The notes below the pieces were generated by a model. The model was given only the letters and a program-made list of their open reading frames with translations. It did no database searches and was not told where the DNA came from. Shown piece by piece: positions 46,010-50,227 of a stretch of DNA of 64,000 bases. How positions within the stretch are numbered: position 1 is the first letter of the stretch; each line of letters opens with the position of its first letter. The stretch comes from an uncultured delta proteobacterium (GTDB lineage Bacteria; Desulfobacterota; Binatia; Binatales; Binataceae), in contig CAVRVY010000001.1 of NCBI GenBank assembly GCA_963724765.1, forward strand, positions 992,001 to 1,056,000, given 5' to 3'. Both the position numbers and the translations under genes were made by a program.

Positions 46010-46082
46010 AGCCCTGGCCTCGCTATGATCGTTGCGCGCCCCCCGGATTGAATTGGCGCGGGCGTCACGTTACCCTATAGCG

Positions 46083-48258
46083 ATGTTTGTGAAGCCAAGT
46101 AGTGGGCTATTGGGTTTGGTTATGGTGGTGGGGTCGGCCGCGCTTCTGGCTCCCACGGCGCGGGCGCTCGGTCCGGTCAATGCGGCGGCCGCTCCATCGA
46201 TTCGCGGCGACGCACGATCCATCCTCGGCCAGTTCGGTGTCCTCGCGATCGTTCCGATCAACCCGGAGCAATCCTTCGTCGAGGGCTACGAAGCTTACCG
46301 CGCGCACGATCTGATGAAGACGATCGAGCGGATGACGCTCGCGGCCGACAAGTACCCCGCGCTTGCCGACTACGCGCTGTTCTATCTCGGGTCGGCCCAG
46401 CGCGACAGTGGCGACAATCAGAACGCCGCCGCGACTTTCCGGCGGCTGAGCTACGGCTATCCGCAAAGCGTCCTCGCCGATGAAGCGTCGCTCCAGTACG
46501 CAGAAATCGAATTCAAACTGGGACGGCTCGGCGACGCGCAGACGGCGGCCGCGGCGCTGGCTGCTCGCAATCCTGACCCGGGAATTGACTCGCAGGCGCG
46601 GCTAATCGAGGCGCGCGCCTCGCTCGGCCTTGGCGACGCGCAAGGCGCCTTCAGCCAACTGCAGGCGCTGCGCGAAAAGTATCCGCAGGGCGCTGCCGAC
46701 AGCGATGCGCGCACGCTCGCCTACTCGATTGCCGCGGCCCATCCCGATCTGATCGACACTCACTCGCTCGGCTACCATCGCCGCGAGGCCGCGTTGCTCC
46801 TGCACGAGGGCCACTCCGCCATGGCGCTTAGCCAGGTCGACGACGGCGCTGGCGCTCGAGCCTCCGGCCAGCGTGCATGCCGAGTTGCTGTGGCTTAAAG
46901 CCCGCGCGCTGCGGGCTGATTCAGACCGCGAGATGCTCGCGCTCGACGCCTATCTCACGTATGCGCCGCATGGCGAAATGGCTCCTGAGGCGCTCTATCG
47001 GCTGGGGCATCTGCAATGGCGTACCGGCGATACGAAGGCTGCGCGCGCGACGTTCACCAAACTGGTGCAGGAATTTCCCGCGCGCGAGATCGCGCCGGCC
47101 GCGATGTTCGACATCGGGCGCGCGTACGAGGACGACGCTCAGTGGGACCTCGCGCGCGCCGCGTACCTGCGCCTGGTCCGCAGCTATCCGCATAGCACTG
47201 AGGCCGCCGATGGCCGCTTCCGCGCGCCGTTTGCGCTCTACATGACCGGGCACTTCGACATGGCCGCGCGCGAATTCGCCTCGATGCAGCCGATGGCCGC
47301 GTCGGCCTCCGAGCGCGACGGGCTCTCGTACTGGCATGCGCGCTCGATGGAGCGCTCCGGCCAAAGCATCGCGGCCACCGCGATTTACCAGAGTCTGGCG
47401 CAAAGCACCGCGAGCAACTACTACCCTGAACTGGCGGCGCGCCGGATCGGCGCGCCCACGGCCCAGTTGGCCGCGGCGGACGCGCCTTCACTCGACGCCG
47501 CCGTGCCTTCCGTGGCGCCCGGCACCCTTGCCGCGTTTCATCTGGACCGTGTCACCACGTTGAAGCGGCTCGGCATGACCTATCTTGAACCGCCCGAGTT
47601 GCGCGCGCTCGCCAACGTGGACTCGAGCGACCCGCGCGTGCGCGATTTCGTGCTCGCCGAATTGCAGCGCACGGGCGATTGGTATGCGGCGATCGAGATA
47701 GCAGTGCGGTTGGAGAAGACCGGCAGCCTCGATTCCTCGACCACCGAGCGGCTGCGCTACCCGCGGGCTTACTGGGACATGATCGCGCAGGCCGCCAATG
47801 GCGACGCGCTCGACCCTTACCTGGTGCTGGCGCTGGTGCGCCAGGAGAGCCTGTTCAATCCGCAGGCGCGATCGGTGAGCGACGCGCGCGGCCTGATGCA
47901 GTTGATGCCGGCTACGGCCGACCGGATAGGGCCGTCGGCGGGTGTCGAGCAGGCCTCGCTCAACCTCTATGATCCTTCGCTGAGCGTGCGCGTGGGCACC
48001 GCCTATCTCAAGGACCTGTTCGAGATGTTCGGCGGCGATCCATTCAAGGCGGTCGCGGCCTACAATGCGGGCGAGCATGCGGTCCAGCAATGGAACGCCA
48101 AGTATCCCGGCGACGACGATCAATGGGTCGAGAATATCGGCTTTCGCGAAACCCGCGACTACGTCAAACGGGTGATCGGCGGCTTGCGGGAGTACCGGAT
48201 GCTCTATCCGTCGCACACGGTCTCCAGCGGCGCGACTCGGCCGCAGGGCCCGTCATAG
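46083..48258 (+). pseudogene. TPR-containing soluble lytic transglycosylase (Slt-like), frameshift near 46840
   Basis: Signal peptide and TPRs in 46083-~46840; TPRs continue in the next frame into RQES, GLMQ, AAYNAG and ETRDYV. May be a sequencing error. Confidence 0.85.
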
Positions 48259-48484
48259 GGCCGTCTTCAGCAGAACCGCCATCGGCCGGCAAGCTGCGGG
48301 CGTTCGCGCAAAGGACTTCCTGGGGAGAAAGTGCGCGCTCCGCTCACGAGGCCACTAAGCGACGGCGCTAAGGCCGGTGCCATGACACATGTCAGCGGGG
48401 TTGGGTCTCGCTCAGTCGCCCAGTGGCGATGCGACGAGCGCCTCCGATTGACCGCGATCATTCGTCTGCTTACGCTACGACGCT

Positions 48485-48655
48485 ATGAAACTGCTCAACC
48501 GCCAGTTGTTCGTCCTCGTACTTAGTGTCGGAGCGTGCGTGACCACGACCGGGTGTTTCTCTTGCACTACGGTGCATAACCCACCGCCTCAAGTCACCAT
48601 CCAGCAGTCGCCTCCTGTGGTAGTCGCGCCTAATCCGCCGCCTCCAGCCCAGTGA
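48485..48655 (+). CDS. Putative 56-aa Pro-rich lipoprotein (absent from ORF track)
   Basis: MKLLNRQLFVLVLSVGACVTTTGCFSCTTVHNPPPQVTIQQSPPVVVAPNPPPPAQ*. Confidence 0.55.
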   Translation: MKLLNRQLFVLVLSVGACVTTTGCFSCTTVHNPPPQVTIQQSPPVVVAPNPPPPAQ

Positions 48656-48720
48656 CACTGTTGCGAGGCCCGCAATTTCGCTCATGTCTCGGAACAATGC
48701 AAAAAAATTAAAGACTAATT

Positions 48721-48815
48721 TGGCTGAGGGGGTAGGATTCGAACCTACGAGCGACTTTCGCCGCTAACCGGTCGTTTTTACAACCGGTTGCCTTCGGCCA
48801 CTCGGCCACCCCTCA
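48721..48815 (-). ncRNA. Non-canonical tRNA-like RNA 1: Ser-type body, 12-nt anticodon loop, encoded CCA
   Basis: TGAGGGG/CCCCTCA-G-CCA; D arm GCCGAGTGGCCGAAGGC; ACCGG[TTGTAAAAACGA]CCGGT; V arm AGCGGC-GAAA-GTCGCT; T arm GTAGG-TTCGAAT-CCTAC. Confidence 0.85.
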
Positions 48816-48840
48816 GTGCGCACCTGCCAGCGCAAGATCG

Positions 48841-48912
48841 GGAGAGCGCGCTAGGATTCGAACCTAGGTCTTCGCCGTGATCGCGACGCACTACGCTCTG
48901 TGCTACGCGCTC
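48841..48912 (-). ncRNA. Non-canonical tRNA-like RNA 2: shortened anticodon arm
   Basis: GAGCGCG/CGCGCTC-T-CC; D arm GCAC-AGAGCGTA-GTGC; TCGC[GATCACG]GCGA; variable loop AGAC; T arm CTAGG-TTCGAAT-CCTAG. Confidence 0.75.
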
Positions 48913-49330
48913 TCTATTCGCACAATGCTTGGGACTTGGATCAGATAGATTAAACCTCTATTCCAGGCACAACTTGGCGTCTTCGAACATCCAAGGCCGC
49001 TCCTGACATGGATTAAACCGGAGGCATCGCTAAGAAGTTCCATAAGCGCCTAATCTTCCCTAAAGTTGCCGTGTGGGTTGTACAAAAACTTGTACCCAAA
49101 CACTTCGATTACCCCCCGCCATGCACCCCTGCGATGGTCCGTCCGCAAGCGGAATGCAACCGCTTACCTAAATGAGTTACTGCGAGATTTCGCAATCAAA
49201 TCAGGGAGTTATGCGGCAATTTGGTTCTCGTTTCGTGCATCGTTGGCCAGCGGAATCGCTTCGGAATAGCGATAGAAACTTGTCAAGATAGCGTCCAGGT
49301 AGCTGCGGCCGTAGTGTAAAGGATCGAAGG

Positions 49331-50227
49331 GTGATAGCAGTCGGCGAGCCGCTGCCCGGACCATTCATCGGTATCGACGTCGGCGAGAATTTTCTCGACC
49401 TCGCGATCGTCGATGCTCCGCCACGCACGCTGGTTTTTAAACGCGTCGGGCTCGACGGACTGAAAGAGCCTGTCTGCGACACGCTGGCAGAGAAAATCAA
49501 AGACGCGGCGCCGGGAATCGATGCGCGCGCGATAGCACTGGTCGACTCGCCGCGATGGCCGCGCGATCTCGATTGGTCGCGCGGAACGCACAAGCGCGAT
49601 CCTGCGCCGCGCGGACGCGAGGTCGACGCCGTCCTGCGGCAAATCTATCGCACGTTAGTGGCTGTGCCCGCCGGCGAAACTCGGATGCCGGGGCTCTCGA
49701 TGTTCCCGACGCCGCGATATGACTACTTCGCGCGATGGGCGCGCGATCCACGATGCAAGCCGCATCTGAGCGCGATCGCGGCCGAACTGTTCGGCGGGCT
49801 TTTAGATGATGATCGTGATGCGGGCGGTCCGACGCAGAGCGGTGGCGGAACTTTCACTCGCTTCATGCTGGCCGGGTTCGGAACCTATCGCGCGCTGGAG
49901 CGGCTCGGCGTGCCCGTCTTCGAGTCCTATCCCGACCTGCAGTTGCGCCTTTCGTCTCCATCGACCTCGCTTCCGCCCAAAAAGCAGCACGCGAAAGCGT
50001 TGGCCGTGCGCCGTGATATCGTCGCGTCGCTCGCGGCAGGGCTTGGGCTTCGCGACGCGCCCATGCCGAAAACTGTTGACCAGGCTGACGCCGCGGCGCT
50101 GGCGCTCGCGGCCGCCTCCTCGGCGCTCGGCGATACATTGTGGGTGGTTCGCCATCCATGCGAGGGACGTTTCATGCTCGCGCTCGACGCTCGCCAGGCG
50201 CGCTGCCTCGGCATAGGAGGCGCTTGA
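49331..50227 (+). CDS. DUF429-like predicted nuclease (RNase H-like fold)
   Basis: FIGIDVG, LVDSP, REVD, FESYP and DQADAAALA pattern. Confidence 0.65.
   Translation: MIAVGEPLPGPFIGIDVGENFLDLAIVDAPPRTLVFKRVGLDGLKEPVCDTLAEKIKDAAPGIDARAIALVDSPRWPRDLDWSRGTHKRDPAPRGREVDAVLRQIYRTLVAVPAGETRMPGLSMFPTPRYDYFARWARDPRCKPHLSAIAAELFGGLLDDDRDAGGPTQSGGGTFTRFMLAGFGTYRALERLGVPVFESYPDLQLRLSSPSTSLPPKKQHAKALAVRRDIVASLAAGLGLRDAPMPKTVDQADAAALALAAASSALGDTLWVVRHPCEGRFMLALDARQARCLGIGGA

Follow-up and report, generated by a model that had tools for sequence, protein, structure and literature searches.

tRNA-like genes at the locus

The window, that is, the whole 64,000-nt stretch of DNA that was analyzed, carries a serine-type tRNA-like gene of 95 nt on the minus strand (48721-48815), recognized by ARAGORN, by Rfam, by its predicted fold and by paralogy to tRNA-Ser(UGA). 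A second irregular tRNA gene (48840-48913, minus strand) is located 24 nt upstream of it on the same strand, and both genes lie on a low-GC, genome-specific insertion of about 1.05 kb (48280-49331). The source genome (G000; 5.4 Mb in four contigs, 62% GC) encodes the complete range of standard tRNAs, among them four tRNA-Ser, tRNA-Tyr(GUA) and a true tRNA-Sec (on contig C3).

The 95-nt gene was returned by ARAGORN as 'tRNA-???' with an unassignable anticodon, and the Rfam tRNA model RF00005 aligned to it end-to-end (full model, 1-71) with a score of 46.5 bits, above the gathering score of 29 that defines membership in this family. The acceptor stem has 7 bp with U1:A72 as the first pair, the D-stem has 3 bp with GG in the D-loop, the variable arm has 6 bp and a GAAA cap, and the T-stem has 5 bp with the T-loop UUCGAAU, giving a 7/5 acceptor/T branch; the 3′ end consists of the discriminator G73 and an encoded CCA. 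The anticodon arm (48766-48789, minus strand) is composed of a 5-bp stem (ACCGG and CCGGU) and a 12-nt loop, the 5′ side of which reads U33-G-U-A-A-A. In the minimum-energy fold this loop zips, and the whole arm becomes a 10-bp helix that contains one U.G pair and is capped by an AAAA tetraloop. A preliminary description of the locus had listed G73, the 6-bp GAAA-capped variable arm, U1:A72, the CCA and the 12-nt loop, all of which are present on the minus strand, and had proposed an anticodon-arm hairpin of 9-10 bp, which corresponds to the 10-bp helix of the predicted fold.

The minimum-energy fold of the full-length RNA was a cloverleaf of -49.2 kcal/mol (z = -5.7), and 0 of 200 shuffled sequences were as stable. 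For the anticodon arm alone, the closed form was calculated at -13.6 kcal/mol versus -5.8 kcal/mol for the open 12-nt loop, a difference of about 7.8 kcal/mol, and the four extra inner pairs of the arm had probabilities of 0.90-0.999 in the full-length ensemble. By our own arithmetic, the chance that four random loop pairs are all standard is about 2%, (6/16)^4. The sole non-Watson-Crick pair of the arm is U.G on the tRNA-sense strand, and the opposite strand would have an A/C mismatch at this place; this single position may be taken as a weak hint of selection at the RNA level.

Compared with a canonical decoding tRNA-Ser, the candidate has the long variable arm and G73, and lacks a 7-nt loop with U33 and a serine anticodon. 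From the pairs G1-C72 and G2-C71 of the canonical tRNA-Ser it keeps G2:C71, position 1:72 being U:A, and G1 is found in all four tRNA-Ser and in the tRNA-Sec of the genome. The stem-disrupting substitutions of a decaying pseudogene were absent (0/21 pairs outside the anticodon arm broken), as was the open 8-nt loop with which a +1 frameshift suppressor presents a quadruplet anticodon. The candidate likewise lacks the 8/5 branch, 6-bp D-stem and UCA or GCA anticodon of tRNA-Sec and selC*, its branch being 7/5 without such an anticodon, and the 8/4 or 9/3 branch of the allo-tRNAs, with an acceptor stem of 7 bp and a T-stem of 5 bp.

The second gene (48840-48913) was labeled 'SeC (tca)' by ARAGORN and scored 51.1 bits with the Rfam tRNA model; despite this label, its best Rfam model was RF00005, and the long variable arm of the tRNA-Sec/selC* type is absent. 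A 4-bp stem carries the GAUCACG loop, which contains the UCA and has A33 and C37; the acceptor stem possibly has 8 bp, and the gene has neither a long variable arm nor an encoded CCA. Its minimum-energy fold was not a cloverleaf (z = -2.4), and no close parent was found among the tRNAs of the genome. The two genes are arranged in the manner of the irregular tRNA polycistrons of soil bacteria, in which at least two such genes follow each other on the same strand, and their spacer is 24 nt. This spacing is compatible with a tRNA operon, and the candidate and 48840-48913 are probably co-transcribed.

The insertion and its contents

The limits of the insertion were determined from the breaks in similarity to relatives, from the GC content and from bridged junctions. 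Similarity to relatives ends at 48274-48279 and restarts at 49332-49357, and the GC content is 0.55 in the insertion versus 0.65-0.69 in the flanks. At 8 of 12 same-genus loci both flanks were aligned and were 31-103 nt apart, versus about 1,077 nt in G000, and ARAGORN detected no tRNA at this site in 19 loci from other genomes. The insertion separates a transglycosylase gene from a DUF429-like gene, two genes that adjoin each other in same-genus relatives, and the flanking genes are of a housekeeping type (TPR-SLT transglycosylase, a weak DUF429 match, HAD hydrolase, nucleotidyl transferase and kinase). The TPR-SLT transglycosylase is encoded here in two overlapping frames (46032-46898 and 46873-48258, plus strand), reflecting a frameshift or an assembly indel, and in same-genus relatives it occupies one open frame of about 717-784 aa.

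Local alignment revealed an imperfect direct repeat of about 24 nt just inside the ends of the insertion, with the left copy at 48292-48315 and the right copy at 49301-49323 (both plus strand); 8 of 500 shuffles scored equally. An ORF of 56 aa (48485-48655, plus strand), convergent with the tRNA-like genes, encodes a lipoprotein-like product with a signal peptide, a Cys lipobox and a proline-rich tail. Members of this ORF family were found in 18/151 family genomes and 10/30 genera, with a patchy and often multi-copy distribution, and the similarity among their loci is confined to the ORF cassette. The ORF was considered as a marker of a tRNA module and rejected as such, with irregular tRNAs at 0/25 loci from other genomes and ordinary tRNA-Met at two.

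Upstream of the tRNA pair lies a conserved dispersed element of about 130-175 nt (49138-49312). Three copies of it were found in genome G003 (L072 1501-1675, L073 1501-1625 and L074 1501-1627), two of which lie on the downstream side of ordinary tRNA-Phe and tRNA-Arg genes, at a distance of 150-185 nt; it was by way of this element that 48840-48913 with its upstream DNA had its only match, in G003. L073 and L074 also share a 1.6-kb repeat with 98% identity. No integrase was detected within 1.5 kb of the G003 copies, and no integrase or transposase in the insertion itself. The small ORFs of the insertion, including the 56-aa ORF, matched no Pfam or PADLOC family, and the same two resources indicated no toxin-antitoxin or defence genes in or beside the insertion. 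The neighborhood showed no partner enzyme and no tRNA-dependent transferase, whether of the Fem type or another, no Rfam family besides the two tRNAs was found in the insertion below E = 0.1, and a simple scan returned 0 promoter and 0 terminator sites.

Sequence support in public data

The 1.08 kb around the genes is contained, in part or for the most part, in ten public DNA runs, which come from seven studies of soil, peat and freshwater sediment, and no RNA run carrying the locus is on record among the listed holders. Contigs from four runs of four studies, one of which may be the source sample of the genome, were aligned to the locus. The contig of X2 record 9 (48473-48829) and that of X4 record 14 (48556-48807), which belongs to another study, both span the anticodon arm without a difference or a gap, and the contig of X1 record 3 (48786-49215) spans the neighboring tRNA. 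Both junctions of the insertion were bridged by public contigs, and the same sequence was present in soil and peat metagenome contigs of several studies. The preliminary description had named reads backing a 7-nt loop as evidence that would overturn it; the contigs of two studies match the 12-nt loop exactly, so the loop is not an assembly error. Among the contigs of the four runs, neither variants within the insertion nor an empty-site allele, that is, a contig joining across it, was seen; with no variants, the population data yield no covariation.

Origin from tRNA-Ser(UGA) and occurrence in other genomes

The closest parent of the candidate is the tRNA-Ser(UGA) of the same genome (G000:C1:178460-178549), with 84% identity overall. 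The two genes share acceptor pairs 2-7, the D-stem, the T-loop, G73, CCA and the variable arm, the last of which is identical in the candidate, in this tRNA-Ser(UGA) and in several same-genus orthologs. The candidate differs in the pairs 1:72 (U:A) and 51:63 (A:U), in three positions of the D-loop and in its rebuilt anticodon arm, which is 5 nt longer than that of the parent and deviates from it at several stem and loop positions. Outside the anticodon arm there are thus seven substitutions (G1 to U with C72 to A, G51 to A with C63 to U, and three in the D-loop), after which 21/21 stem pairs are intact and two pairs have changed on both sides. Since G1:C72 and G51:C63 were kept in all 19 tRNA-Ser(UGA) orthologs examined from relatives, U1:A72 and A51:U63 of the candidate are derived.

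When seven substitutions were placed at random in 200,000 trials, the share of trials in which all stems stayed paired was 0.8% with uniform and 3.1% with transition-biased substitution, and all stems stayed paired with at least two double-sided changes in 0.03-0.05%. This simulation takes the present tRNA-Ser(UGA) as the ancestor and does not distinguish a copy that is selected now from one that was working until recently. Removal of five nucleotides from the loop would restore a canonical 7-nt loop, for example one with GUA, which leaves room for a recent insertion into a working loop. Judged from these comparisons, the candidate is a derived and species-specific paralog of tRNA-Ser(UGA), probably a recently acquired copy.

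Neither of the two irregular tRNAs was found in 40 relatives, and the 95-nt version was found in none of 164 other family genomes, a count that includes five flagged as unpublished (G075, G101, G073, G049 and G114; 0/159 when these are excluded). Full-length matches to the candidate in the family genomes were 84-90 nt long, the ordinary length of tRNA-Ser, with at most 84% identity, and there was one partial match of 45 nt. An exact scan for the anticodon arm gave 0 matches in the genome collection and 0 in the viral collection; its single match in the metagenome collection (L021), inside a protein-coding gene where no tRNA was called, was rejected as a chance occurrence. A degenerate pattern of the variable arm and T-arm gave four matches in the genome collection, all of them ordinary tRNA-Ser(UGA), two from MAGs named 'uncultured delta proteobacterium'. 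The search for other tRNA-like genes with the same arm, as proposed in the preliminary description, therefore returned none in the 164 family genomes or in the exact scans of three public collections. With no other 95-nt version in these genomes and scans, there is no comparative covariation and no conservation. An origin of the arm as a dispersed palindromic repeat was rejected, because the genome contains the arm only once, even when as many as 4 mismatches are allowed.

Other irregular tRNA copies in the genome

Four further irregular tRNA genes were noted in G000. An Arg(UCG)-type tRNA at G000:C4:37370-37444 (minus strand; L081 1072-1144) has a 6-nt anticodon loop, intact stems and an Rfam score of 60 bits, and same-genus relatives matched it with ordinary tRNA-Arg only (78-82% identity). 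A 91-nt gene at G000:C4:64275-64365 (minus strand; L082 1078-1166) scored 61.9 bits with the Rfam tRNA-Sec model, has a GCA anticodon, resembles the published selC* tRNA-Cys and was found in 1/30 relatives searched (G002). An extra copy of tRNA-Arg(UCG) at G000:C4:574959-575035 (minus strand) has 4/5 T-stem pairs; this imperfect copy adjoins a 58-aa paralog of the 56-aa ORF (L042 3174-3350, plus strand). A second copy of tRNA-Lys(UUU) at G000:C1:473332-473405 has 3/5 T-stem pairs and is decaying, and its flanks share segments of 207 nt (88%) and 43 nt (98%) with the selC*-like locus on C4.

All five irregular-tRNA loci, including that of the candidate, are low-GC patches (0.49-0.59), and some flanking segments are common to them; on this ground the organism appears to have received its irregular tRNA copies as cargo of acquired DNA. 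In three copies the stems are intact while the anticodon loop is altered, being 12 nt long in one, 6 nt long in another and non-canonical, without U33, in the third, and this repeated alteration suggests selection against copies that would mis-decode.

Predicted charging and EF-Tu binding

[quoted passage not shown] The candidate retains the variable arm, G73, G2:C71, A3:U70 and the D and T loops as compared with tRNA-Ser(UGA), and a single canonical SerRS gene is present in the genome (G000:C4, in the region of 589428-589745). Serylation of the candidate by SerRS is therefore plausible, and U1:A72 in place of the conserved G1-C72 could lower charging.

The contribution of the T-stem to EF-Tu binding was predicted from the terms in Table 2 of PMC3239215. 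It was -0.4 kcal/mol for the four genuine tRNA-Ser versus +0.7 kcal/mol for the candidate, and this shift of 1.1 kcal/mol toward weaker binding is below the outlier threshold of 1.3 kcal/mol used in that paper. The pair A51:U63 occurs in 13 of the 55 G000 tRNA calls with a recognizable T-arm. As a hallmark of irregular tRNAs it was rejected, being found also in standard tRNAs for Tyr, Trp, Gln, Ile, Met, Val and Sec, and the hint from EF-Tu is weak for the same reason.

Interpretation of the locus

The locus contains a real and correctly assembled gene derived from tRNA-Ser(UGA), with an occluded anticodon; together with the irregular tRNA that stands in tandem with it, this gene is carried by acquired DNA inserted over a length of about 1.05 kb. 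That the anticodon is hidden had been recognized in the preliminary description; the species-specific paralogy, the insertion of about 1 kb and the tandem irregular tRNA had escaped it, and the frameshifting that it entertained lacks support, as set out below.

Our leading reading, to which we give not quite an even chance, is that the gene specifies a maintained, non-decoding tRNA-like RNA, a paralog of tRNA-Ser(UGA) that has been neofunctionalized or is at least structurally maintained. The paralog would be carried on acquired DNA and probably co-transcribed with the second irregular tRNA. In its acceptor, D, variable and T arms it matches a functional serine tRNA, from which an L-shaped fold, cleavage by RNase P, a CCA end and, most likely, recognition by the single SerRS would follow. 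The anticodon loop, rebuilt as a closed 10-bp hairpin, would on thermodynamic grounds be withdrawn from codon reading, and A51:U63 in the T-stem would, by the published values, be a weaker pair for EF-Tu. Such an RNA might serve as a serine carrier or sink outside translation or as a decoy for tRNA-binding proteins; alternatively, it might be the tRNA-like module of a longer transcript, comparable to tRNA-Other of Bacillus cereus. A more specific form of this reading is unlikely in our estimate, namely a natural 'anticodon-less' seryl-tRNA in which aminoacylation is uncoupled from decoding by the zipped loop and a weakened EF-Tu contact, and which acts as a dedicated serine carrier or as a decoy of an enzyme or toxin on mobile DNA, expressed together with a second disarmed tRNA. 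In favor of a maintained RNA we count the identical variable arm, the intact stems after seven substitutions, the near-perfect helix of the arm, the anticodon-independent serine identity, the tandem spacing and the recurrence of the sequence in soil and peat metagenome contigs of several studies. Counted against it are its occurrence as a singleton, the small foreign-looking insertion, the poorly folding partner tRNA, U1:A72, the commonness of A51:U63 among standard tRNAs of the genome, the lack of a partner enzyme, toxin-antitoxin or defence gene nearby and the negative result of the simple promoter and terminator scan.

A serious contender, though well short of an even chance, is a non-functional relic, that is, a tRNA-Ser copy on mobile or acquired DNA, the anticodon arm of which was disabled recently, perhaps in one complex step (for instance a 5-nt insertion, or template switching within the arm, which is quasi-palindromic), and which is too young to have decayed. 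Its species-specific position on the low-GC insertion of about 1.05 kb, its pairing with another aberrant tRNA and its lack of conservation in the 40 relatives and 164 family genomes all fit a relic, as do the further defective or irregular tRNA paralogs in the genome, with five low-GC loci and some shared flanks, and the return to a canonical 7-nt loop when five loop nucleotides are dropped. Decay in this genome, as pictured by tRNA-Lys(UUU) and tRNA-Arg(UCG) with 3/5 and 4/5 T-stem pairs, looks different from the intact stems of the candidate, and the retention of 21/21 pairs outside the arm despite seven derived substitutions argues against a relic. The arm, moreover, differs from that of the parent by several changes and still forms 10 consecutive pairs, and it was not copied from a dispersed palindrome. 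The argument from stem compensation would also suit a copy whose work as a tRNA ended only recently.

It is improbable that the locus is a cis-acting DNA or RNA element, either an attachment site left by an integrative element that targets tRNA genes or a structure that processes or stabilizes a neighboring transcript. The imperfect terminal direct repeats and the dispersed stretch at 49138-49312, copies of which lie at island-like DNA in G003, 150-185 nt downstream of ordinary tRNA genes, would suit such an element, and as described in PMC3399842, B. cereus tRNA-Other flanks an island and acts within a larger RNA. Neither the insertion nor the 1.5 kb around each of the G003 copies, however, was found to contain an integrase or transposase. 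Integration usually duplicates only the 3′ part of a tRNA, whereas two complete tRNA-like genes are present here.

Less probable still is an active decoder, in which the loop would open and present GUA, so that Tyr codons would be read as Ser, or would promote frameshifting. U33-G-U-A-A-A on the 5′ side of the loop and the anticodon-independent serine identity are compatible with such a role. The anticodon nucleotides are, however, paired in a helix that is predicted to exceed the open loop in stability by about 7.8 kcal/mol and whose inner pairs have probabilities of 0.90-0.999, which bears out the earlier suggestion that the RNA is unable to decode, and a normal tRNA-Tyr(GUA) exists in the genome. 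Known +1 suppressors have anticodon loops of 8 nt, and the loop of the candidate has 12 nt and is self-paired, so the frameshifting put forward in the preliminary description lacks support. By these calculations, codon reading or frameshifting by the candidate is unlikely. A sequencing or assembly artefact concealing a true loop of 7 nt, for which the general possibility of indel errors and the adjacent transglycosylase, split here and a single frame in relatives, might speak, is effectively refuted by the contigs of two different studies, in which the arm recurs unchanged and ungapped, and by the bridging of both junctions.

Comparison with known systems

The finding matters for annotation, since tRNA finders label such genes 'tRNA-???' or 'SeC'. 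If expressed and charged, the maintained RNA favored above would be a clean natural case of a tRNA kept for its body and its amino acid and not for its anticodon. It would enlarge the small set of non-translational tRNAs (cell-wall tRNA-Gly, tRNA-Other and inactive allo-tRNAs), and closing of the anticodon loop would offer a design principle for orthogonal aminoacyl carriers. If the gene is a relic, it still illustrates that, in this lineage, the loops of tRNA copies carried by acquired DNA have repeatedly been altered with the stems left intact. Literature searches on expanded anticodon loops in bacteria and on non-canonical serine-type tRNA-like molecules yielded no natural example, and the irregular sequences in the supplementary figures of PMC5389517 may bear on this.

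Among +1 suppressors such as SufB2 (bioRxiv 10.1101/2020.12.31.424971), the anticodon loop exceeds 7 nt as it does in the candidate; these suppressors have one extra nucleotide and an open loop, whereas the candidate has five extra nucleotides that are paired back. The 'non-proteinogenic' tRNAs with weak EF-Tu binding, e.g., the Staphylococcus cell-wall tRNA-Gly (Schrader & Uhlenbeck 2011, PMC3239215), are likewise extra isoacceptor copies with T-stems predicted to be weaker for EF-Tu than those of their class. As presented there, these tRNAs have a normal anticodon loop and known transferase partners, whereas the loop of the candidate is closed and its shift of 1.1 kcal/mol is smaller than the threshold of 1.3 kcal/mol.

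Soil and peat data have yielded polycistrons of irregular tRNAs as well as inactive allo-tRNAs (Mukai et al., NAR 2016/17, PMC5389517; PMC7609411). In the account of Mukai et al. (PMC5389517), whose sequences include the tRNA0/1/2 groups, some irregular tRNAs are charged yet unused in translation, some have nonsense-like anticodons, and a link to mobile DNA is suspected. Like the pair reported here, these polycistrons consist of tandem irregular tRNA-like genes from soil or peat bacteria. The allo-tRNAs described there have an 8/4 or 9/3 branch, whereas the candidate has the canonical 7/5 branch without an E-loop and without G-1, and the proximity of toxin-antitoxin genes considered by Mukai et al. 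is not seen in or beside the insertion by Pfam and PADLOC. The 12-nt self-paired loop, which is the peculiarity of the candidate, does not figure in the text passages of that paper that the comparison covered.

tRNA-Other of B. cereus (Rogers et al. 2012, PMC3399842) is reported there as an island-associated pseudo-tRNA with a non-translational role, recruited as a tRNA-like element. It resembles the candidate in being tRNA-like, associated with an island and outside translation, the last of these being a prediction for the candidate. According to that report, tRNA-Other is expressed, has phenotypes and acts in a larger regulatory RNA, whereas the candidate, which is unrelated to it in sequence, is a putative RNA predicted from DNA. 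Among the known systems, the candidate most resembles the irregular tRNA polycistrons and the tRNA-Other of B. cereus.
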